From assembly GCA_012401045.1 (NCBI GenBank), contig GCA_012401045.1_4704.1: a DNA stretch of 64,000 nucleotides. One strand, given 5' to 3'. The notes beneath the pieces were generated by a model. It was not told where the DNA came from, did not search any database, and saw only the letters and a program-made list of their open reading frames with translations. This document shows positions 31 through 49,032 of this stretch, one piece after another; the first letter of the stretch is position 1, and each line of letters starts with the position of its first letter. The translations under genes and the position numbers were made by a program. The DNA comes from a phage.

Positions 31-1785
31 TTATGCCGCTACATACCCAGGCCAACGTTCTCTTGGCCAGTTTGTTGCGCCCTGTCCAACGTTGTCCTTA
101 CCAGAAGTTACATTACTTACATCCCAACCACTAAGATCCTGGTTAAATGCGGTGTTGTTACGCATCATGAGGTCGATATTACGTAATGATTGGGTATTCC
201 AGCCGGAAATGTCTTGGTTGAATGCCGTGTTGTAAGCAAACATGTTAACAACGTTTTGTAATTTTGAAGTGTTCCAGCCGCTAATATCGCCATTGAACTG
301 CATGCTCGAGAACATACTGCTAGCATCGATAAGACTATCTGTTTTCCAGTTAACCAGCTTGTTCTCATCAAGTGCGTTGCAACTACTGAACATGTAACTC
401 ATGTTGTTAACTTTGGATACATCCCATTTATCTAACCCGTTACCAACGAACTCGTAACAAGCTTGGAACATCCAGCTCATGTCGGTAACCTGGCTCACAT
501 TCCATTTGCTAAAGTCGAGGTTGAGTTTTGCGCATCCGGAGAAAGTTTTATACATACTGGTGATACGACTAACATCCCATTCTTGAATGTTAGGATCATT
601 AAGTATAGATAAGAATTGGAACAATCCGTCTAACGACGTCCATTTCTCTGGAATACGGTTTGGTACTGTACGGAGCGATGAAAGGTTATTGGTTGACGGA
701 GAGCGGAACATACCGTTATCCCAATTTACGATTTCCGTAATGTTGTACCCACGGATCGTTTGGCGTCCATTACCATTATACACAGACCCTGTTGCAGTTA
801 TTGTATATTCGTTTGTATCAGCATACGTATGTTCAGCCTGTGTAGGCCACTCACCTATTACATCCCTATTCCCATCACCCCAATCGATGGAAATATCTGT
901 CCAACCATCAAGATCTAGGGTAACGGTCCCGCCATTGGTCTTCAGGATGTATTTACCTGCATTGTCGGTATAATAACAAACGATCATCGCACCGTATAGG
1001 TTACCAATTTGCCAATCATCCTTTTCTGTTACCGCGATTTGCGCTGTACCACGTTGTAAGAAAAGCACCGTACGGTTGTCGTCAGTCTGTAACGCGGTTA
1101 ATGCTTGAGCTTTGTCGTCGCCGGTAATTTCACCAGCTTCCACTAAAGCATTTAACATCCTTTCGAAGTATTCGATGGGTAATTGACGCCCTACAGACAT
1201 ATCAACAGACGGTACAGCAAGATCACCCAATGCCGCAGTGGTAGCCAACGTCAATGAACCCTTGGTCATATCTGTTTCTTGGATGTAATGCAGTCCCGTA
1301 AGCTGGTACGCTTGAATAATAGTAATCAGGTCCAACGTATCGTTAACGACCTGTACTTGTAAATGCCCGGACCACACATAGCTGCTTTCGGCAATTGGTA
1401 GTTCGATTGACTGAATACCTGATGTTTCAAAGGTGATCTTCTTATTAAGATCGGTTTCCAGGAAATCAACCACGAGGTCGAAATTAATGCCGTACTTTTC
1501 AGCGATGGAATCTACGATATTTCTGAAAGCAACATCGGTGCTTACGATAAAACGTAACGGAATTCCTGTAAATGCATTAGCGATATCTCGACGAACATAT
1601 GTAAGCGATTGTTCGAAGAAATAGGGACTGTTATCTCCAGGCTTGATGGTTACCTGACATGCTTCAGGATGTTCGGCTGGGATGAACGATTCGAATTTAA
1701 CGTCGGACTCCTTCAACGAAAGCATGTTCTTCCGGTTTACCAACGCCAGAAGATCAGCTTTCCATTCAGGATAAACTGTAGACAT
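31..1785 (-). CDS. DUF285/BspA-like repeat protein, putative tail fibre or receptor-binding protein
   Basis: Track ORF 31..1803 trimmed to ATG at 1785 with GGAG RBS. C-terminal ~190 aa is tandem ~25-aa repeats (FNQDISGWNTS...V..M..MF) typical of DUF285/BspA-type repeats. N-terminal region is paralogous to 43948..45402 and 5436..6266. Confidence 0.6.
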   Translation of the reverse strand: MSTVYPEWKADLLALVNRKNMLSLKESDVKFESFIPAEHPEACQVTIKPGDNSPYFFEQSLTYVRRDIANAFTGIPLRFIVSTDVAFRNIVDSIAEKYGINFDLVVDFLETDLNKKITFETSGIQSIELPIAESSYVWSGHLQVQVVNDTLDLITIIQAYQLTGLHYIQETDMTKGSLTLATTAALGDLAVPSVDMSVGRQLPIEYFERMLNALVEAGEITGDDKAQALTALQTDDNRTVLFLQRGTAQIAVTEKDDWQIGNLYGAMIVCYYTDNAGKYILKTNGGTVTLDLDGWTDISIDWGDGNRDVIGEWPTQAEHTYADTNEYTITATGSVYNGNGRQTIRGYNITEIVNWDNGMFRSPSTNNLSSLRTVPNRIPEKWTSLDGLFQFLSILNDPNIQEWDVSRITSMYKTFSGCAKLNLDFSKWNVSQVTDMSWMFQACYEFVGNGLDKWDVSKVNNMSYMFSSCNALDENKLVNWKTDSLIDASSMFSSMQFNGDISGWNTSKLQNVVNMFAYNTAFNQDISGWNTQSLRNIDLMMRNNTAFNQDLSGWDVSNVTSGKDNVGQGATNWPRERWPGYVAA

Positions 1786-1803
1786 AAGCACTCCAAAATT
1801 CAT

Positions 1804-1820
1804 GGGGCGGTAACCGCCCC
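1804..1820 (-). promoter_or_regulatory. hairpin abutting the track start codon of the fibre-like gene
   Basis: Palindrome GGGGCGGTAACCGCCCC (7-bp stem) directly adjoining the track ATG at 1803 and 5 nt after the stop of the 1198-aa gene. Confidence 0.4.
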
Positions 1821-1825
1821 ATCGG

Positions 1826-4800
1826 TTAAATTGTCGGTTTTACATCACGTAATAAGGCAATATAATAGCCTAATCCTCGGAGGATCTCCCCACTCCAGAA
1901 ACCAAAATACATTCCGTCTCTGCCGAGATTAGCGCTATCTGGTGCGGGACTCCACCCACCATTCATTACGTCATCAACGGTGTAGCGGTTGATGTAGTTT
2001 TCAACGATTTCATTATAAACGTTAACGGCAACAGGATAGCCTTTATCGTTGGGATGCCCATACAACATCGCTAACGACGCACCCGCTAACCATAATCCTG
2101 CCATGTGACCAGTAAAGTCGTTCGGGATAAAGGCAGGGGGTTTATCCATCGGAAAATCCGTAGGAGATTGATAAGCGTTTTCCTGTTGATACGTAAACAA
2201 GAAATCAATCCAATGGCTGATGTAAGTGGTTAACTTCTCAGGGACAGCTAAACCACGATCAAGCAGTCCAGCATAAAGCCTCACCGCTGAAAAGAAAGCC
2301 CTCGGCTGATAACCAGACCATGCTGTCTGATCGCCGAAATGGTACATCGTAAAATCATTAACTTTTGATCCGCTTGGCGCATCCCAACGATCCCACACGT
2401 ACGCACTTGCTCCTGGCCCTAAAACCCCGAATTTCTGATAATACCACTGCTGCGAGTCATACCAGAAATTCACAACATTCTGAATCATGAGGTCACGTCG
2501 TTCAGCCGATACGTCCATATCCAGGAAGACCCATGGATGTTGGTAGCCGGGATAAGGCTGACCACGCCAACTGTCGAACGTCGGTGCGTTAGGGATATAG
2601 TTGTTAGAGAACGGAATAATACCCGGAGTATAAGGCAATGGATCCAGACGTTGGTTGACAATCGTGCAATCGCCAACACGTAATGTTCCCTCCGCCTCAA
2701 AGGTTGCTTTTAACGTAAACAGCATGGTATATCCGTCATCCGTGGTGTAAGTTGACGGCGGATTGTTGATGGCGTAGAGCTTAAATACCCCCTCAGCGAT
2801 ATCGCTGTCGTCAGGCAAGAACAGAATTTCAGTTGAACCGTCGCCCCACACAGGTGCGGAAGGTTTAGGGTCAGTATCAGCATGGCCAGGTTGATACCCT
2901 GAGAGCCTCCATCCGTTCGCCGAAAGCGTCAATGTATTTCTTGCTGTGGTGGCCGGTAGCATATACCACCATCGCCAACCATTTGCATCTTCTACACGAA
3001 CGTTGTAGTCAATCGACGCGAAATAACTGACCTGCCTTACGATCTGTTTTGCGGTTGGATTGAATTCAAATTGTCCGCCTGCCGCAGTAAGCTGCGCTTT
3101 TAGGAACAACCCATCCCAGGAATCTTCCACCGCTTCGCTGAATTCTGTTGTGATTGCGATATCGTCTTTCCAGCCGACTTTATCAGCCGATATCAACACC
3201 GAACCTGTAACAGCATCACCGGTTGGTGTTGAAGCTTCATCAACCGCGTCAGCAGGAATCAACGAGCCTATTTTGAAATCCCATCCTTTCGGTTCAGCGC
3301 TGGAAGGTAATACCAGCTTGTACGTTTTGGCGTTCGCTTCGGTTTTGTCCAAAGAAAGCGATAATGAGATTTCAACCGGAATTGCAACGCCTGCTGTATC
3401 TTTACCTCCGCAGGTTATACGAAGAATTGAATCACGATTGACGCGGAACGGGATGGCCTGCTGTTCAAGGTAAATTTGTGCTGAAGATGCTTGAATCACG
3501 ATCCAGCCATCGGTATCACGCGTGATTGTAAACGGTGCTTTCGATGGGTATGTATACGTGTAAGCGATACCGTCGGTGTCGTAACGATCGGTTCCTTTTA
3601 CCTGACGGAAGAACTTATCGTTGGCGTCAATACGGGTATATTCTTCAATCGTGAACAAAGATGCCTTGTACGCTTTCTGATAACGCTCCTGCTGCGTTAA
3701 ACGGTATAAGGTGTATGCTGCTTCACAAAACCACTGTTCGGCGTCTGACGCGTTTCCCATGTAGTCTCTGGTGACCGGTACCTGGATCGGTCGGTTATGC
3801 TGACATTCGTTTGTTTTAATAAGGTATCCGCCGTATTCAACAGGAACACGGGGTGCCCATGCAACCAAGTAAGAACCATTGACGGATCTATCTTTGAGTA
3901 CGATGGTACCTACTTCATCGTCGGTACACGCTTCAAGATCGTCCCCGTCAGCACTTACGTAACGTTTTGTGCGTAACGCAACTTTCTCGATAGGAAACAC
4001 CGTACCCTTTGTATCCCAGTCGATCGTCCCATCATCATTGGTTTTGAACACATCCGCGTTCAAATTCTGCCAGCCGAGTTTACCCTCATAGACCTGAACA
4101 ACAAGATCCGTGTACTCCCCGAACGTGGGCGCACCGTGTGTTATTTTTCCAATACCGTTGGTGAATGTAACCGCTGTGTCATGGAAACCACCGTGTGTCG
4201 GATAATCGTCTTTTGCAAGAGGATAATGGGCCAGCACGGGTTGTTTACCATTAACAATCCAGTTAGCGATCCAGCGTGCCGGTGTATCCGGTGGTTCAAG
4301 GCCCGCATAGAACGCTTTTATATACGCATCGAACGATGACTCTGCTAATGTGAGATAATGCGCTTTAAGCTTGCTATCATCCGTTGTATGACTGAATATA
4401 CCGGCACCCAGAATTAACAACGACTGTCCTTCTGTTGTTGCGTCACCATCCGGTTGTGCTTCTTGTCGTGTTGCTGCAATGAAATGGCGGTTGTTTACCA
4501 TGACCCCGCTTTCATTTAACACGTAATGATCGGTTTCTGGATTGGTAAACGTTCCTGTATTTCGGGTTAAGAAGCTTGCATGACCATAACCAACGAAATT
4601 AACCGGCGACGCTGTAATCACCCATTTACCGATAAGTTGAGCAACATCATTATAACGCTCGGATGATGTGATTTGTTTCACGTACCAGTCTTTACGGTTG
4701 AATGTCCAGAGCAAGAAGTAATAGGTGGTATCGATTTTCATCACTGGGAACGTCGGTGTTAACGGCTCCAGCGTTAAGTAGTTGCTCCAGTCGATTTGTC

Positions 4801-5422
4801 CGCCAACAACCGATGGGGTAATCTCTAATAACTGACACCATTCATAACGGTCTGGTACACTACTGGACGTTGTTGGTAAAGGTAACTTGTATACACCAGT
4901 ACGATTCAGATTGAGTGCTTTTCTAGCCGATCCTAAATCAACATAAATGCTCGATGATGCGCTTGCACTATATGCCCCCAAAGCACCCAGCGTTGACCGA
5001 TACATTGAGATGAACAACGTATCTTTCCAATACGGATTATCCGTAACAGGCTCAAGTGCAATTTGTGCGGAGATGCTGTTCCATGTCCCTAACTGGTATG
5101 TCGCATTTAAAGATTCTTCCGTGAAATAACTTTCTGCAATCGCCAGATGGAACTGCTCGTTCAATAATGCGAGTGCCGCGCGACCAGTAACATCCTCATT
5201 ACCGGTTTCTTTTTTCATGATCGCGCCGAACGGAAACAGTGTCGCGAATGACCGTTTTGGTTTATTAACCGTAACCGTCCCCGTGTAGTTTCCAACACCA
5301 TCAAGTTTTTGACTATCGCCAACAGCAGTGACTGCGATACCATCAGCCGGGATATTTGTTTTATTTAGTATATTGAGTTGGTCAACCAGATCCTGCTTAT
5401 CGTCAGGTAAGAATGTCGCCAT
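1826..5422 (-). CDS. large hypothetical protein (1198 aa), possibly virion or fibre associated
   Basis: Long uninterrupted ORF with strong RBS (AAGGTGGAG) before ATG; sits between two fibre-like paralogues. No motif recognised. Confidence 0.5.
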   Translation of the reverse strand: MATFLPDDKQDLVDQLNILNKTNIPADGIAVTAVGDSQKLDGVGNYTGTVTVNKPKRSFATLFPFGAIMKKETGNEDVTGRAALALLNEQFHLAIAESYFTEESLNATYQLGTWNSISAQIALEPVTDNPYWKDTLFISMYRSTLGALGAYSASASSSIYVDLGSARKALNLNRTGVYKLPLPTTSSSVPDRYEWCQLLEITPSVVGGQIDWSNYLTLEPLTPTFPVMKIDTTYYFLLWTFNRKDWYVKQITSSERYNDVAQLIGKWVITASPVNFVGYGHASFLTRNTGTFTNPETDHYVLNESGVMVNNRHFIAATRQEAQPDGDATTEGQSLLILGAGIFSHTTDDSKLKAHYLTLAESSFDAYIKAFYAGLEPPDTPARWIANWIVNGKQPVLAHYPLAKDDYPTHGGFHDTAVTFTNGIGKITHGAPTFGEYTDLVVQVYEGKLGWQNLNADVFKTNDDGTIDWDTKGTVFPIEKVALRTKRYVSADGDDLEACTDDEVGTIVLKDRSVNGSYLVAWAPRVPVEYGGYLIKTNECQHNRPIQVPVTRDYMGNASDAEQWFCEAAYTLYRLTQQERYQKAYKASLFTIEEYTRIDANDKFFRQVKGTDRYDTDGIAYTYTYPSKAPFTITRDTDGWIVIQASSAQIYLEQQAIPFRVNRDSILRITCGGKDTAGVAIPVEISLSLSLDKTEANAKTYKLVLPSSAEPKGWDFKIGSLIPADAVDEASTPTGDAVTGSVLISADKVGWKDDIAITTEFSEAVEDSWDGLFLKAQLTAAGGQFEFNPTAKQIVRQVSYFASIDYNVRVEDANGWRWWYMLPATTARNTLTLSANGWRLSGYQPGHADTDPKPSAPVWGDGSTEILFLPDDSDIAEGVFKLYAINNPPSTYTTDDGYTMLFTLKATFEAEGTLRVGDCTIVNQRLDPLPYTPGIIPFSNNYIPNAPTFDSWRGQPYPGYQHPWVFLDMDVSAERRDLMIQNVVNFWYDSQQWYYQKFGVLGPGASAYVWDRWDAPSGSKVNDFTMYHFGDQTAWSGYQPRAFFSAVRLYAGLLDRGLAVPEKLTTYISHWIDFLFTYQQENAYQSPTDFPMDKPPAFIPNDFTGHMAGLWLAGASLAMLYGHPNDKGYPVAVNVYNEIVENYINRYTVDDVMNGGWSPAPDSANLGRDGMYFGFWSGEILRGLGYYIALLRDVKPTI

Positions 5423-5435
5423 TATTTACTCCACC

Positions 5436-6266
5436 TTAATCGTAACTAAAATAAAGTTTGCTGCTGACGCCGCTATCGGAATGAGGTTTTAATACCAGAA
5501 CAGAGCTTCCGAACGACGGAAGTATTGGAACGTTTAAATCGTTTGCGTCGGCAACTTTTCCATTATAAACGACACTGGCTGTAGTGATGAGTTCCCAAGC
5601 TAAGGTATAACTCATTGAAATCAGCGATGAGGCTAAACGGAATGCGTTGTATCCTTCGGGGGTATCTCCAACCGACATCGAACGTATCGCATCTTGCGGC
5701 GGTAAATTTAGCTTGATGCCGTAGGTACTGAAAGTATGGAAATCCCCTTGTTTACTATCTTCTGGATAATGCGAGGTTAGCGGTTCTCGCACCGTAATCA
5801 GTTCGCTAATATCGGTACTTACCGCTTTTCGAGCGAGGAATTGAAACGTACCGTACCACGATGCTGATGCATCAGAATGAACGGGAACAGCTATGGTTTT
5901 CTCGTCGCTTTCAAATTTAACCTGTGACACTAACGCTGAAGCATCAAAGATCGTTAAATCGATCTTCAACCCATACTTCTTAAACAGCTGCGTTAAGCAG
6001 TCTGCTGTCGTCGTTTTATCAGCAACGACAATAAAAGGTTGGTGTTTGATAAAGAGCTTGTTAATATCGCGACGTTGAAGATAAACCTGTACGGGGTCTT
6101 CGATATAGTAAGCCGATTGTGGTGTGGGGACTATAGAAAGGCGTAACCGACCTGATGCACCATACCAGGCTGGCGTTAACGTAACGTCTGACAGAGACAA
6201 CGGATGCTGGAGATAGGCGTTTATTTTAGATAACACTTCCTCCTGCCATGATGCTTCAGGATACAT
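5436..6266 (-). CDS. hypothetical protein sharing N-terminal domain with the DUF285 fibre-like proteins
   Basis: GAGGT RBS before ATG at 6266. Segment YLQRRDINKLF...KYGLKIDL aligns by eye with YVRRDIANAF...KYGINFDL of 31..1785 and YIRRDIAKNF...RYGLVFD of 43948..45402. Confidence 0.5.
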   Translation of the reverse strand: MYPEASWQEEVLSKINAYLQHPLSLSDVTLTPAWYGASGRLRLSIVPTPQSAYYIEDPVQVYLQRRDINKLFIKHQPFIVVADKTTTADCLTQLFKKYGLKIDLTIFDASALVSQVKFESDEKTIAVPVHSDASASWYGTFQFLARKAVSTDISELITVREPLTSHYPEDSKQGDFHTFSTYGIKLNLPPQDAIRSMSVGDTPEGYNAFRLASSLISMSYTLAWELITTASVVYNGKVADANDLNVPILPSFGSSVLVLKPHSDSGVSSKLYFSYD

Positions 6267-11564: not shown

Positions 11565-12521
11565 TCACGCTTTTGCTAAGTAGGGTTGGATCTCATTAAT
11601 CCGTTTAACCACAACCTCAGGGAAAAGTTTGAGTATTTCATCAGGCGGTATCGTACCTTCTGTCCAACGATAGCGTTCAACCATCTCGATGCGTGGACTC
11701 CCTCCGACATCAGCGATACGAAAGATACAGGCGATGCCTAAATCGAAGCATACGCTGTAAATATCTTCCGTACCTCCTTTATCAGCAAGTATTTTCGCAA
11801 AATGCTCGTTATCAGGAAGAATGGCTAAATTACGGATACACCAAACATTACTACCCATTTCTTCAAGTTTTGGGTAGGTTAAAGTGTGCCCGTATCGTGT
11901 TAACCATTGATGATTTTCGAGGTAGAAGTCCTTATCCCCTGGCCGATAACCCAATATCACCCCAGTGTAGAAGAGATTGGGCATATCGAGCAGTTCTTGA
12001 ATCGTTGGACCCGTATGCTCCCAGAGACAGATTTGTTTACGGTCTATATCGTAATCTGTGACGTTACTCACCTCCCAACTTATCGTAAGTTCATCGGCAA
12101 CATGCCAACCTAAAGCCTGTTCACCACCAAGCAGATTAACAATGGCTGTTATTTCATACTTGTCAAATACGCCTAAATTACGCGGTGGCTGCATTGTACG
12201 TAATGGCTCCCACAGCACACTGTAATCATAGAGCAAATGACGACATAAACTTTTTGTTAGGGGTGTCTGTTCGGTGAACAGCGGAAGAATCACCGTATCC
12301 AATAACGGGCGTAACGGATGACCATCCGGTGGTAACGGGGTAGCCAGCCGACCTCCTTCTTTGAGGTAATCGAGACCAAACCCGTAACGCTCCGAAATGA
12401 GTGCAATCAGCACTTTTGCTACGCGGTTACGTAGTATGCGATGGATATCATCACTGTAACTGAATTTCGGTTTATTGCCGCAAACGAAGGTGAAGTATCT
12501 GGGCGTTAGCACAGCCATCAT
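11565..12521 (-). CDS. hypothetical protein
   Basis: 318-aa ORF in operon orientation; no motif recognised. Confidence 0.5.
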   Translation of the reverse strand: MMAVLTPRYFTFVCGNKPKFSYSDDIHRILRNRVAKVLIALISERYGFGLDYLKEGGRLATPLPPDGHPLRPLLDTVILPLFTEQTPLTKSLCRHLLYDYSVLWEPLRTMQPPRNLGVFDKYEITAIVNLLGGEQALGWHVADELTISWEVSNVTDYDIDRKQICLWEHTGPTIQELLDMPNLFYTGVILGYRPGDKDFYLENHQWLTRYGHTLTYPKLEEMGSNVWCIRNLAILPDNEHFAKILADKGGTEDIYSVCFDLGIACIFRIADVGGSPRIEMVERYRWTEGTIPPDEILKLFPEVVVKRINEIQPYLAKA

Positions 12522-43947: not shown

Positions 43948-45402
43948 ATGAAACTTAAACAAAGCTGGAAAGACGAACTTCTCGCGTTAGTAAACAGCAA
44001 AAACAGTTTACAACTGACATTAGACGATGTAAAATTTGAACTAACGGCACCGGTAAGCGAAGTGCCTGGAACGGTCGTTGTTACAATCAAACCGAACGAT
44101 AATAGTCGCTACTTTAACGAGCAGTCTCTGACCTACATCCGTCGAGACATCGCTAAAAACTTCACTGGGATCCCGTTACGGGTCATCGTTAAAAAAGATA
44201 CCGCTGTAAGGGATATCATCAATACGATTGCTGAACGTTACGGATTGGTATTTGACACAGCCGTCGACTTCCTCGAATCCGAGCTGAATAAACAAATTAC
44301 GTTCGCAGACACCGGTATTAAAGACATTACGGTTCCGGTTGCAAACACGTCTTATGTTTGGGCGGGTAATCTTCAGTTCAATATTGCTAACGATACGTTA
44401 AGCTTGATTACTATCATCAAGAAAACCGATCTTACGAATCTGGTTTATCTGGATGGTGTTGAAGCTGACACATCTGGTTCGTTACTATTAGCAACCGCAG
44501 CACTTGTTAACGAACACGTAAATGAACCGATGGTTGAAAACGAAGATATCGTTAATGAATTTATTAACGTTCTTAATACTCTAGCCAAATATGGTGACAT
44601 AACCGGCGATGAATTAGATGCCGCCTTACAAGCGTACGATGAAGCAGAAAACAGGAATAAAACCACGGTAATAACTCTTGGTGATATCCAGTGTGTTGCA
44701 ACAGAAAAAGACGATTGGGAAATTGGACGTTTACGCGGTCAGATGGTTCTCGCGCTCAAATCCGATAAATACCCGGAGCCCGATAACACGTTCAGGTTGT
44801 TTACGAATGGTGGTGACGTATCGCTAACGTTAAACACAATGAAAGATATAAGTATCGATTGGGGTGATGGGAATAAAGTAACGTTGGATGCTGAAGAAAG
44901 ATACGCGCACCACACATACGCCGACAATAACCAGTACCAAATCGAAATTGTGTCTCGTACGGACCCAGATGTGCTGCGACCAAATTATATTTCTGGGAGT
45001 GAGATAACCGAAGTAATTCACTGGGCTACTACTTCAACAATAGCTCTGAATTTTGTTGGATGCGATAATTTAGCGACTGTTCCAGATGAGATCCCAACTT
45101 CGTGGACAACGTTGGACAGCATGTTTGAAAGTTGTACGAATTTGAATGATCCGTCTATCTCTAACTGGAATACAAGTAACATCACATCAATGAATGGTAT
45201 GTTCGGCGGATGCACTAAATTTAACCAACCTTTAGCTGCCTGGGATGTCAGCTCAGTAACTGACATTGGTGGTATGTTTAACGGATGCAACAGTTTTAAC
45301 CAAGATTTAAGTGGGTGGCGATTACCGTCAGGAGTAACCCACGACAATTACGATAGTGGTGCTTTCTCGTGGCAGACGGAACATAAACCGACGTTCCAGT
45401 AA
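43948..45402 (+). CDS. DUF285/BspA-like repeat protein, paralogue of 31..1785
   Basis: N-terminus KLKQSWKDELLALVNSKN parallels STVYPEWKADLLALVNRKN; C-terminal repeats NWNTSNITSMNGMF...FNQPLAAWDVSSVTDIGGMFNGCNSFNQDLSGW. Confidence 0.65.
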   Translation: MKLKQSWKDELLALVNSKNSLQLTLDDVKFELTAPVSEVPGTVVVTIKPNDNSRYFNEQSLTYIRRDIAKNFTGIPLRVIVKKDTAVRDIINTIAERYGLVFDTAVDFLESELNKQITFADTGIKDITVPVANTSYVWAGNLQFNIANDTLSLITIIKKTDLTNLVYLDGVEADTSGSLLLATAALVNEHVNEPMVENEDIVNEFINVLNTLAKYGDITGDELDAALQAYDEAENRNKTTVITLGDIQCVATEKDDWEIGRLRGQMVLALKSDKYPEPDNTFRLFTNGGDVSLTLNTMKDISIDWGDGNKVTLDAEERYAHHTYADNNQYQIEIVSRTDPDVLRPNYISGSEITEVIHWATTSTIALNFVGCDNLATVPDEIPTSWTTLDSMFESCTNLNDPSISNWNTSNITSMNGMFGGCTKFNQPLAAWDVSSVTDIGGMFNGCNSFNQDLSGWRLPSGVTHDNYDSGAFSWQTEHKPTFQ

Positions 45403-46770: not shown

Positions 46771-49032
46771 TTACAATTCAAAATCTTCATCGATAACACG
46801 CTGGGTAAGCACTTTGTCGCTGAAGAACTCCACCTTGCGCTGATGGTATTTACGGTGCGCTTCGATAGAAGTACATACCAGATACCAGAACGTTGGCGTC
46901 ATTCCTTCAAACTTTCCTTTCAGCTGACGCAGTCGCCCCAACACCTGAATGTTACCGGTTCGTGACCCCATCGCTAATGTCATGAACGTCATCACCAAGT
47001 CAGGAAGGTCGATACCTGTACCTGCCGATTTCACCGTTGTAACGCTAATATCGTTATCCAGCAAGACCATGAAATCTTCTTCAGCGGTATAAGGACCGAT
47101 CTCTAACTCAGGGATACGTTCACTGAGATAATGCGACAACGACTTACACATATCGACGGTTGCACAATACACCAGCATCTTCATACCTTCCTGATACTGG
47201 TTCATGAAACCCTTGATAATAACGGTATAGATGAAGTTAAAATACGCGAGTTTGAGTTGCTTGTTCTTCATGATAGACTGTTCGAATATCGTGTGTGAAT
47301 AAGCTCCACCAAACCCTTTGTATCTGACTTTATCTGTACTGCGTAGTCGGTACGTTACCGCATTTACCGCAATGTATTTCTTGTATTCGCCTTTCGCATA
47401 ACGAGCTTCTTTCGGATACATCAAATACAGCATCTGTTCGATAAACGGATCATCGGATACCGCTGTTGCCGACAGATAAATGATTTCCGGAATATTGGCG
47501 TAACACTTGACCTTAAACAAGAAATGCAATGCTTCGTGACACTCGTCATGAATCAGCAAACCTATGCCGGTCTTTTCCCAAAACTCAGCGGGATGAAAGG
47601 CATATGGCGCAACGCAGTTATTCTTCTCGTAGTCCGCAATATAACGTTGGAACATGTTCAAGGAGAACAATGCGATTTTAAAGTCGAGTTCACCTTGTTC
47701 AACCAAGGTTTGAAACTCCAACATACTGTAACGAGGAATGTCGGGATGCGGTGGATCCTCCTTAGCGTTCCCGCGTATCTCGATAACGTCCCCTGGTTCC
47801 ATCCCGAAGAAGTTCAGCAGTGAGCTTCGCCAACCTGGCATATACCGTGGAGAAAGTATAATGCCTGTGCGCACACCCCGTCTGAACACGATTTCCTGCG
47901 ACATCGCGGTGTTATGCGTGACGATGTGGTCTTTAATAACATAAAGGCTTTCGTCATTGTCCACCGTGATGCAACGTGCTTTCGCTTTCACTGTCGGTAC
48001 GATGCTATCAATCGCTAAACCAGGAAGCCGGTTAACGGGGAGATCGTCTGGAACCTCAATGTCGTCAGGAATAAGCTTACGCAAATCGGAATGATAAATT
48101 AATGTCTCCATCGTGTAACTATCGATGGGGCATTTATACGCGATTCCTCCTAACTGATAAGCCAACTCCCAAACCTTGGCCGTTATCTGCGAATCGACGG
48201 TTCTGACCGCAAGGTGAGCTTGCCCGTTTCTGATTCTCAGTTCACAGCGACCTTTGATTACCGCCTTAAATTCCTCGATACCGACGAGTTCTTTCGGTTC
48301 GTAAAGTCGGATTCTTATTGGACGAGATCGAGCAGGTCTGTCGTAAAGACATTCCATGATTTCGTCCGTGCTGAGAACCTTATCGGGGTCAGTACACCGC
48401 CAGAGATGATCGCCACACGCTTCAACCATCCTACCGTCTTCAAAGAAGATAGCATGAAGCTGAATATCGTCATGATCAAATATAGCGGTTACGTTCGTCG
48501 GTAACCCATCCGCACCAACAACCTGATCCCCTACCTGAAGCTCACCAATCGGCTTCCAACCTCCTGGAACCTTCACGGGTGTGGTAAGCCGTACCGCTTT
48601 CCCTGACCCCGTTTGAGCGGTGTTTAGGCTCATTCTGAAGGGGGTATCCTTACCCCCGTCCATGTACTCCAACCATTCTTGCTGATCTTCACGCCATGGA
48701 AACTTCCATTTCTTTACGAACTCCACTTCTTTACCTGGTACCGGATCGTGATAGACGATTTCCAACCACTCTTTTCGTATCCCTCGGGAAAAGATAAAAT
48801 CCAAAAACGATTTCAACTGTTCACGGAGTAAGTATACCTCGCTATAATCGCTTCTTGCCGCGGCATACGTGTTTATGGTATCGGTAACCATTCTCCGTGT
48901 ACGAGGGTCACGCCGTTTCCTCAGATGCAAACAACGGTCTCGAAGGTAATGGCCGATAAGATGGGCAAATCGAAGTCCGTATCCGCTCAGCCTCATGCCA
49001 TGCGAGAAGACGTCGATACGAGCTAACTTCAT
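46771..49032 (-). CDS. SF2 DExH-type helicase with an intein-like insertion in the P-loop
   Basis: AQTGSGK then ~229-aa insertion then TAMSQ (reconstituting GSGKT); downstream DECH (motif II), SAT (motif III) and QVLGRLRQ (motif VI). Confidence 0.6.
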   Translation of the reverse strand: MKLARIDVFSHGMRLSGYGLRFAHLIGHYLRDRCLHLRKRRDPRTRRMVTDTINTYAAARSDYSEVYLLREQLKSFLDFIFSRGIRKEWLEIVYHDPVPGKEVEFVKKWKFPWREDQQEWLEYMDGGKDTPFRMSLNTAQTGSGKAVRLTTPVKVPGGWKPIGELQVGDQVVGADGLPTNVTAIFDHDDIQLHAIFFEDGRMVEACGDHLWRCTDPDKVLSTDEIMECLYDRPARSRPIRIRLYEPKELVGIEEFKAVIKGRCELRIRNGQAHLAVRTVDSQITAKVWELAYQLGGIAYKCPIDSYTMETLIYHSDLRKLIPDDIEVPDDLPVNRLPGLAIDSIVPTVKAKARCITVDNDESLYVIKDHIVTHNTAMSQEIVFRRGVRTGIILSPRYMPGWRSSLLNFFGMEPGDVIEIRGNAKEDPPHPDIPRYSMLEFQTLVEQGELDFKIALFSLNMFQRYIADYEKNNCVAPYAFHPAEFWEKTGIGLLIHDECHEALHFLFKVKCYANIPEIIYLSATAVSDDPFIEQMLYLMYPKEARYAKGEYKKYIAVNAVTYRLRSTDKVRYKGFGGAYSHTIFEQSIMKNKQLKLAYFNFIYTVIIKGFMNQYQEGMKMLVYCATVDMCKSLSHYLSERIPELEIGPYTAEEDFMVLLDNDISVTTVKSAGTGIDLPDLVMTFMTLAMGSRTGNIQVLGRLRQLKGKFEGMTPTFWYLVCTSIEAHRKYHQRKVEFFSDKVLTQRVIDEDFEL
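47911..48597 (-). mobile_element. putative intein (Hint domain, about 229 aa) within the helicase gene
   Basis: N-terminal AVRLTTPVKVPGGWKPIGELQVGDQVVGADG resembles Hint block A; C-terminal RCITVDNDESLYVIKDHIVTHN followed by Thr resembles blocks F/G (HN plus nucleophile). Confidence 0.5.

Follow-up and report, generated by a model that had tools for sequence, protein, structure and literature searches.

The closest described relatives of the locus examined here come from Escherichia phage Goslar, for which a virion structure by cryogenic electron microscopy (cryoEM) and quantitative proteomics were reported in April 2026 (bioRxiv 10.64898/2026.04.21.720040). That study defines DUF7941 as a chimallivirus-specific domain with ten Goslar members (gp22, 23, 31, 33, 34, 86, 91, 92, 93, and 161), all 10 of which were recorded by mass spectrometry of virions; with about 580 and about 2,140 copies, respectively, gp22 and gp23 belong to the most abundant proteins of the particle, gp161 is represented in purified virions by 27 peptides, 54% coverage, and about 111 copies (range 74-174), and about 5 copies apiece were counted for gp92, gp93, and gp86, against about 1 for gp91 (Table S4). 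According to the same work, purified gp22 makes filaments in negative stain; AlphaFold places the linker of one protomer (plus the C-terminal domain, if present) on the N-terminal domain of the next, in head-to-tail contacts; PhiKZ gp126-gp127 fits density left unexplained in the outer peripheral baseplate as solved for PhiKZ; gp86, gp92, and gp161 bear carbohydrate-binding, glycosidase, or leucine-rich repeat (LRR) domains; and a DUF7941 'fibre cloud' is proposed for first host contact (10.64898/2026.04.21.720040). Here we describe gene A, the coding sequence at 31..1785 (minus strand) of a 64,000-nucleotide stretch of phage DNA (NCBI GenBank assembly GCA_012401045.1, contig GCA_012401045.1_4704.1; the entire stretch is called the window), whose product begins with a DUF7941 domain and ends in an LRR head preceded by an immunoglobulin (Ig)-like domain. 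We think it fairly probable that this product is an accessory virion protein, borne on DUF7941 filaments, whose Ig-LRR head binds the host surface.

Chimalliviruses receive close study because of the phage nucleus and with a view to therapy, yet little is understood of the way in which they find their hosts, and the proposal of a 'fibre cloud' dates only from 2026 and derives from a single phage. The kind of protein encoded by gene A is already known. The new findings are modest though useful: an eleventh family member that Goslar appears to have deleted, the scar of that deletion, the putative Ig-like cassette, and a cargo census of the family that includes a Gp38 adhesin domain.

Domain make-up of the gene A protein

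The open reading frame (ORF) in the program-made list runs from 31 to 1803 on the minus strand, and we take the ATG at 1785, which has GGAG 5 bases upstream and follows a hairpin at 1804-1820, as the likely start; the gene limits proposed in the first-pass annotation (31-1785) thus stand, and the product is 584 residues long. The elements of the gene are as follows.

31..1785, minus strand: gene A coding sequence, DUF7941-Ig-like-LRR protein; stop codon at 31-33 (ORF list; Pfam DUF7941 and DUF285)
1791..1794, minus strand: ribosome-binding site GGAG, 5 nucleotides upstream of ATG 1785 (sequence reading)
1804..1820, minus strand: GC-rich hairpin GGGGCGGTTACCGCCCC, between the stop codon of the upstream gene (1826-1828) and gene A (sequence reading)
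1336..1785, minus strand: DUF7941 N-terminal globular domain, residues 1-150; proposed filament and baseplate attachment module
1186..1335, minus strand: linker, residues 151-200, motif DLxxIIxxxxLxGLxYxxxxxxTKGS (alignment with family linkers; predicted local distance difference test score, pLDDT, 66-83)
946..1185, minus strand: helical and beta middle domain, residues 201-280; common only to gene A and the paralogue at 43948..45402
751..945, minus strand: Ig/PKD-like beta-sandwich, residues 281-345 (DWGDG...HTY...EYTITATG); most variable segment and putative recombination cassette
79..750, minus strand: LRR solenoid, residues 346-569; N-cap and eight DUF285/PARCEL units of 24-26 residues each
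34..78, minus strand: C-terminal cap and tail GATNWPRERWPGYVAA, residues 570-584; the last 4 or so codons persist as a scar in Goslar

The N-terminal part of the protein matches Pfam DUF7941 (PF25613) at residues 18-186 with 79.6 bits (cutoff 27; E 3.6e-22); of the 276 positions in the profile, the match takes in 12-185. By both Pfam profile and alignment, the gene A protein has no counterpart of the family's C-terminal globular domain (about 190-276 in the profile). That domain is not universal: its motif is present in gp22, gp31, gp33, gp34, gp93, and PhiKZ gp127, and it is also missing from gp23, gp91, and PhiKZ gp126. The linker segment DLITIIQAYQLTGLHYIQETDMTKGS aligns with the linkers of gp22, gp31, gp33, gp34, the gp86 homologue, and PhiKZ gp127; for gp22, it is this stretch whose docking on the N-terminal domain of the following protomer is predicted. 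Direct reading of the protein sequence reveals no signal peptide, lipobox, or membrane anchor, and the DUF7941 domain starts with the N-terminal residues MSTVYPEWKADLLALVNRKN, without a hydrophobic leader. Nor did any Pfam or PHROG family for the features of trimeric fibres and tailspikes (fibre, collar, and beta-helix domains, or a chaperone) match the protein; the original description 'fibre-like' is accordingly loose, since trimeric-fibre features are missing and the published model is of a bead in a head-to-tail filament rather than of a classical fibre.

The distal part was correctly read from the outset as tandem DUF285 repeats of about 25 residues. Pfam DUF285 (PF03382) matches with 153.4 bits against a cutoff of 25 (E 2.8e-45), and the NCBIfam 'PARCEL repeat' (TIGR02167) matches in 4 stretches with 71.3 bits against a cutoff of 30 (E 3.7e-20). 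Eight repeat units can be recognized at residues 368-569, by eye and by regular expression, with the sequence FNQDISGWNTS present verbatim and a conserved Trp at 403, 428, 454, 480, 504, 529, and 554 (spacings 24-26). A tandem-repeat scan of gene A DNA found none at the nucleotide level and no recent expansion, and the repeat units are therefore old. PARCEL coding DNA has been reported to be dyad-symmetric (Roske et al. 2010, PMC2996958); such symmetry is not evident here, where only three short imperfect inverted pairs were seen in 1-800. Pfam LRR_5 (PF13306) gave no match to the gene A protein at E <= 1, and the label 'BspA family' on database homologues, which is NCBI's name, rests in our reading on DUF285. 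The cap that follows the repeats carries a motif (GAxxW...KPxF) whose relatives also end other DUF7941-DUF285 proteins. Ahead of the repeats, Pfam PKD (PF00801) spans the WxxGDG...HxY...Y core at residues 295-338 with 15.2 bits, below its cutoff of 23.5 (E 0.022).

A first AlphaFold2 model was confident only for residues 175-584, with pLDDT below 50 in the N-terminal domain, where the alignment held close relatives only; a second model of residues 1-290, built with 117 diverse family members, gave the N-terminal domain a pLDDT of about 95. The beta-sandwich is modelled at pLDDT 86-97, and the head is predicted to adopt an LRR solenoid fold. By fold search, the model of the N-terminal 150 residues shares the fold of PhiKZ gp127 (chain 0 of PDB 9xqd), which is itself a DUF7941 protein (97.5 bits) and sits in the outer peripheral baseplate of the solved virion. 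Sequence searches of the PDB gave no match for the whole gene A protein and noise only for a six-sequence profile of the N-terminal domain, and a direct hhalign comparison of this profile with gp127 was weak (probability 36%, E 3.8e-4), so that the link to gp127 is secured solely through Pfam and the fold search. Membership of the shared N-terminal domain in the paralogue group of PhiKZ gp131 was considered and dropped, as the Pfam and fold evidence points to gp126, gp127, and gp143.

How widely the N-terminal domain is joined to other domains became clear from a census of the family. Only 37 close relatives came back when the N-terminal profile was run in a word-indexed search, and we therefore searched 1.84 billion representatives exhaustively with the profile, recovering 214 family members of 134-1778 residues in which the domain nearly always begins within residues 1-20. 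All members of at least 380 residues (51/51) are DUF7941 proteins by Pfam, and their recognizable cargos are the following.

DUF285: 9/51 members
Laminin_G_3 (concanavalin A-like, or ConA-like, lectin): 2/51, with six copies in P0281
LRR_5: 1/51 (P0165)
NCTSP TIM barrel: 1/51
Kelch propeller: 1/51
Gp38 tail-fibre adhesin: 1/51 (P0263, residues 306-528, 75.5 bits)

Of these cargos, the Gp38 domain points most directly to a possible use of the cargo position in receptor binding. Two 176-residue members, P0121 and P0140, consist of the N-terminal domain alone and are 60-63% identical to that of gene A (the gp91-type proteins of 175 residues are about 31% identical), and some relatives may thus carry a cargo-less derivative of gene A.

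As far as the analysis could reach, neither outcome named beforehand as telling against the first-pass interpretation (a missing DUF285/BspA profile match, or a protein absent from virions and unrelated to adsorption) was encountered. The suggestion that a common anchor bears exchangeable distal domains is supported by this census, by natural variants in which the domains have been exchanged (P0053 and P0063, described below), and by the finding of gp161, the Goslar orthologue of the paralogue at 43948..45402, in purified virions at about 111 copies. That interpretation, reached independently from the letters of the sequence, is in essence the published DUF7941 model; an adsorption function is putative for every member of the family.

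Goslar comparison, orthologues, and the fibre island

From position 1789 onward the window is 95.4% identical in nucleotide sequence to Goslar, with the same gene order, and by sequence the window phage is a Goslar-like chimallivirus, a nucleus-forming jumbo phage (Chimalliviridae). Goslar has no orthologue of gene A; its best match is gp161. A Logan contig (L002) that is 100% identical to the window, encodes an identical gene A protein, and extends farther leftward was aligned with Goslar, and the alignment contains a clean 1,745-bp indel corresponding to L002 9998..11742. Specifically, i) Goslar keeps the upstream hairpin and ribosome-binding site (TTTGGAGTG); ii) directly after the ribosome-binding site, Goslar TAGTAGCATAA matches the last codons and stop of gene A (TAGCGGCATAA); and iii) the downstream hairpin comes next. 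As an orphan ribosome-binding site is joined to the 3′ end of a reading frame, the indel is a deletion rather than an insertion, and we infer that gene A was lost in the Goslar lineage through a precise 1,745-bp deletion.

Genome-wide screens identify the outer core GluII of lipopolysaccharide (LPS) as the K-12 receptor of Goslar (bioRxiv 10.64898/2026.04.02.716166). Because Goslar lacks gene A yet infects E. coli K-12 via the LPS core, gene A is dispensable for basic infectivity; the best fit is an accessory part in first contact or in extending the host range. A search of complete E. coli genomes found no match to gene A, and finished genomes thus give no sign that it exists there in a resident or carrier state.

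Gene A has its own ribosome-binding site and flanking hairpins. The upstream hairpin, a perfect 7-bp GC stem (GGGGCGG-TTA-CCGCCCC) without a clear T-run, is kept in Goslar with a sole change in the loop, and could be a terminator, an attenuator, or an RNA-stability element. A scan for sigma-70 promoters and terminators around gene A gave nothing above shuffled expectation, with a model ill-suited to chimallivirus late transcription. After the stem of the downstream hairpin (CCTCCCCTACCTCG..CGAGGGGGGGGGGGGG), just left of window position 1, there is a run of about 13 G residues (L002 about 11786..11798) which could be prone to assembly error or variable in vivo. An antisense ORF of 128 residues (587..973, plus strand) lies opposite the Ig-like segment and LRR N-cap, and another of 109 residues (45018..45347, minus strand) lies opposite the DUF285 repeats of the paralogue at 43948..45402; neither is probably a gene.

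About 50 clusters of intact orthologues (at 90% identity) encode proteins of 583-590 residues that are 63-93% identical to the gene A product, many of them on contigs of 235-248 kb. Some are named as E. coli proteins in the database, which suggests phage contigs inside E. coli assemblies. In a gap-free alignment of four orthologues analyzed by Nei-Gojobori counts, the ratio of nonsynonymous to synonymous substitution (dN/dS) is 0.06-0.23 in every comparison and 0.04-0.07 in the N-terminal domain, and we conclude that gene A is functional. Among the orthologues, amino-acid entropy is highest at residues 281-340, where framework residues are retained and the loop at 307-318 is replaced wholesale. 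Comparison of the window with a second genome, L015, sharpens this picture: the proportions of synonymous and nonsynonymous differences (pS and pN) are 0.00-0.01 and 0.000-0.003 in the N-terminal domain and linker, 0.85 and 0.34 in the Ig-like segment, and about 0.3 and about 0.05 in the LRR. So sharp a mosaic indicates intragenic recombination in which the Ig-like segment was exchanged as a cassette, and on this sequence pattern we regard the segment as a recombination cassette. Bacterial DUF285 homologues align over 45-50% of the gene A protein, past the repeats and into the Ig-like segment, so that the Ig-like domain and LRR together look like one transferable unit.

Natural variants show other joints. 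In P0053 (477 residues; L013 4199..5632) the N-terminal domain is joined directly to the Ig-LRR without residues 150-276, and on its contig this is the sole gene where Goslar has gp93 to gp86. In P0063 (L012 324..2045) the C-terminal 373 residues of the gp92 homologue are fused in frame to a gene A LRR that is 79% identical to residues 384-584 of the gene A protein, although the location at the start of a contig makes an assembly artefact possible; this contig is without the long tail-fibre gene, and a Caudo_TAP gene comes directly after its gp91 homologue. P0051 is, like P0063, a truncated or fused variant. A 241-kb genome (L017) keeps gene A and a shorter fibre but is without gp92 and gp93 homologues, and the fibre of L015 has a Gly_rich_2 tip. 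Gene A is a neighbour of the long tail-fibre gene and of further DUF7941 genes and varies together with exchanges of the fibre, and to judge from these comparisons its region behaves as a mosaic host-range island. More generally, Goslar-like genomes (L013, L015, L016, and L017) show strong mosaicism in the block that lies between a 192-residue gene and the genes of gp85 type, and tail-fibre tips vary among them, being Peptidase_S74, Gly_rich_2 with Caudo_TAP, or a short fibre of 834 residues.

Within the window, three genes besides gene A concern us here.

43948..45402, plus strand: full-length paralogue of 484 residues, DUF7941, Ig-like, and about 3-4 DUF285 units; Goslar gp161 orthologue by synteny
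5436..6266, minus strand: cargo-less paralogue with a complete DUF7941 (N-terminal domain, linker, and C-terminal domain; Pfam profile positions 54-274); Goslar gp93 orthologue by synteny
1826..5422, minus strand: upstream 'tail protein' of 1198 residues, Goslar gp92 orthologue (phrog_2871, E 9e-297; 95% nucleotide identity to Goslar)

A phmmer search of the gene A protein against all six-frame ORFs of the window matched only the first two, exactly the pair for which a shared N-terminus had been proposed; the module truly common to the three is about 175-185 residues (N-terminal domain and linker motif), not the 300 allowed at the upper end of that proposal. The paralogue at 43948..45402 (E 1e-115) has about 47% identity to the gene A protein within residues 7-446 and again in the C-terminal cap, and resembles that protein minus about four internal units (100 residues). 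It had been credited with a different repeat set, but carries the same DUF285 family (E 1.2e-25; LRR_5 reaches only E 0.13). The match at 5436..6266 (E 3e-7) covers residues 4-170, and the absence of repeats there is confirmed, as Pfam finds a complete cargo-less DUF7941 protein. Although gp92 is counted as a DUF7941 member in the preprint (bioRxiv 10.64898/2026.04.21.720040), the domain was undetected in its homologue at 1826..5422 by Pfam (E <= 1) or by a hidden Markov model from five N-terminal domains of the window and locus, and the relationship, if real, is structural only.

Downstream of gene A, just outside the window, L002 encodes a DUF7941 protein of 175 residues (gp91 homologue), then, two positions from gene A, a 1265-residue tail fibre with Phage_tail_fib, Phage_fiber_2, and Peptidase_S74, and also an 870-residue protein combining DUF7941 with an NCTSP TIM barrel (gp86 homologue). 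The neighbours of gene A are thus tail and fibre genes of its own strand and, counting the two window paralogues and the 175- and 870-residue proteins, at least five proteins of this phage start with the same module.

A helicase ORF of the SF2/RAD type in the window (46771..49032, minus strand; 753 residues) has 226 extra residues (148-373) relative to Goslar gp164. The insertion (about 47914..48591, minus strand) falls directly after the Walker-A 'TGSGK', begins 'AVRL', and ends 'VTHN' followed by Thr, which is the layout of an intein, and its flanks are 97% identical to gp164; Pfam Hom_end_hint reaches only E 0.05.

Proposed role and its alternatives

If the contacts predicted in the 2026 Goslar study extend to gene A, the N-terminal domain of its protein would accept the linker of another DUF7941 protomer, and its own linker would dock on a further N-terminal domain. 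The protein would then be woven head-to-tail into the flexible DUF7941 filaments (mainly gp22 and gp23) that hang from the baseplate. The middle domain, the Ig/PKD-like sandwich, and the eight-unit DUF285/PARCEL solenoid take the place of the family's C-terminal globular domain, and the Ig-LRR head would project as a side or terminal ligand-binding unit of the filament. By binding a structure of the host surface, as its fold, the types of cargo in the family, and the evolutionary pattern suggest, the head could raise the chance or the range of first contact, with strain specificity set largely by the Ig-like loops that recombination swaps. The LRR head, in short, probably binds the host surface, an adhesin role that we infer.

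Several considerations weigh against this proposal. We know of no ligand for any DUF285 domain; the Ig-like segment falls below the Pfam threshold for PKD; and without the C-terminal domain the gene A protein may cap filaments rather than extend them. Goslar, the only phage of the group with both virion proteomics and cryoEM, lacks gene A, and the Goslar virion preparation also held non-virion assemblies such as chimallin and PhuZ, while mass spectrometry cannot separate external virion proteins from internal or injected ones. The Goslar maps are without DUF7941 density at the baseplate, so that placement rests on PhiKZ gp127, filament formation is shown for gp22 only, and incorporation into hetero-oligomers is an AlphaFold prediction (10.64898/2026.04.21.720040).

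Capping is the starting point of one alternative, in which the gene A protein is a chain terminator or length regulator of DUF7941 filaments and its LRR binds phage proteins, with, as a speculative extension, cross-linking of tails in structures such as the intracellular virion 'bouquets' of Goslar-type phages. The incomplete DUF7941 match (positions 12-185 of 276, C-terminal motif missing) agrees with such a role, as do the use of LRRs as generic protein-binding scaffolds and the description of Goslar bouquets with tails pointing inward. Yet polymerisation is predicted for gp23 too, the most abundant filament protein with about 2,140 copies, although it has no C-terminal domain either; Goslar makes bouquets in the absence of gene A; and a hypervariable Ig-like cassette would be unexpected if the partner were a conserved phage protein. 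We therefore consider a terminator unlikely.

That the head tethers virions to the habitat of the host (gut mucus, or eukaryotic or particulate surfaces) rather than to the bacterium itself, after the manner of Hoc, the Ig-like decoration of T4, and 'adherence to mucus', also seems quite unlikely to us; the DUF7941 cloud would then be a retention device and not a receptor-binding device. An Ig/PKD-like domain does precede the LRR, DUF285/BspA-type proteins are typical of host-associated bacteria and of giant viruses that infect eukaryotes, DUF285 proteins are packaged in Aureococcus virus particles, and the dispensability of gene A for infection of K-12, the isolation of Goslar from duck dung, and the naming of some orthologues as E. 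coli proteins would all be compatible with a tether. The other cargos of the family, on the other hand, are binders or enzymes of bacterial surfaces (the Gp38 adhesin, ConA-like lectins, and the glycosidase-like TIM barrel), gene A sits in a tail-fibre island and covaries with fibre exchanges, and exchange of Ig-loop cassettes better fits an arms race with a variable bacterial surface than it does attachment to a conserved mucin.

Many proteins of chimalliviruses are packaged and injected, and mass spectrometry gives no location for gp161; the gene A protein might accordingly be a packaged and injected effector, or a non-structural protein, whose LRR engages an intracellular or periplasmic host target, and the virion association of its relatives would reflect internal packaging. 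We hold this to be very improbable, since the N-terminal domain has the predicted fold of an external protein of the baseplate periphery, the gene lies among same-strand tail and fibre genes, and the related cargos are binders of extracellular type. Least credible of all is a decaying or neutral duplicate of a gp161-type gene heading for loss as in Goslar, a history to which the 47%-identical paralogue in the same genome, the clean loss in Goslar, and the truncated or fused variants P0051 and P0063 could be fitted, but which is at odds with some 50 clusters with an intact frame of 583-590 residues, dN/dS of 0.06-0.23 throughout with strong constraint on the N-terminal domain and LRR, retention of gene A in the L017 genome that lost its gp92 and gp93 homologues, and the gene's own ribosome-binding site and flanking hairpins.

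Beyond the accessory, filament-borne adhesin that we favor, we put forward tentatively a broader possibility: that DUF7941 filaments are a general display scaffold which co-polymerises paralogues with different heads, and that gene A supplies a second, cassette-swapping specificity head for surface types of wild E. coli such as O-antigen or capsule, its Ig-like loops traded through recombination among Goslar-like phages that circulate together, a capacity that the laboratory type phage Goslar would have lost with the 1,745-bp deletion. If so, the published Goslar virion would under-represent the natural host-recognition apparatus, and host range could be reprogrammed by swapping a segment of about 65 residues. 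We wish to stress that natural Goslar-like phages usually bear at least one more cargo-bearing DUF7941 protein than Goslar does, and that the variable part of this protein, a small Ig-like cassette ahead of a conserved LRR, offers a concrete handle on host range.

Comparison with known systems

The nearest known counterpart of the gene A protein is Goslar gp161, which has the same succession of DUF7941 N-terminal domain, linker, middle domain, Ig-like domain, DUF285 LRR, and C-terminal cap and is about 47% identical over residues 7-446. The two types differ in that gene A has about four more LRR units (584 residues compared with 484) and lies in the tail-fibre island, whereas the gp161-type gene lies beside helicase genes. 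The core filament and baseplate members, Goslar gp22 and gp23 and PhiKZ gp126 and gp127, are without cargo, unlike gene A; gp22 and gp127 end in the family C-terminal globular domain that the gene A protein is without, and gp22 and gp23 are present at hundreds to thousands of copies.

The repeats themselves are of bacterial type. Surface proteins of the DUF285, PARCEL, or 'BspA-family' kind (Mollicutes lipoproteins, and proteins of Listeria and Bacteroidota) have the same 25-26-residue repeat (PF03382, TIGR02167), but the gene A protein differs from them in having a phage virion-attachment domain at its N-terminus and no visible membrane signal. DUF285 arrays also occur in giant proteins of other nucleus-forming jumbo phages (OBP_145, 1713 residues; Klebsiella phage N1M2 gp118, 1965 residues; phrog_17273/22899), which are encoded beside a baseplate assembly gene and contain 6-9 DUF285 stretches. 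Unlike gene A, these have no DUF7941 by Pfam, and must therefore attach to the virion differently, if at all.

Branched receptor-binding systems, such as TSP1-4 of CBA120, gp63.1/gp66 of G7C, and those of the multi-depolymerase Klebsiella jumbo phages, combine a shared N-terminal adaptor with interchangeable heads. We saw no relationship of sequence or fold between them and gene A (Pfam, fold search), and they differ in construction, being trimeric tailspikes docked in fixed stoichiometry, whereas the proposal for DUF7941 proteins is a long filament of monomers joined head to tail. The logic is nonetheless the same: a conserved N-terminal docking module, several paralogues, and different distal domains in one mosaic island. 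Gene A thus supports a rule that may hold across the DUF7941 family, of an N-terminal docking module joined to interchangeable binding heads, one of which is a bona fide Gp38 adhesin domain.

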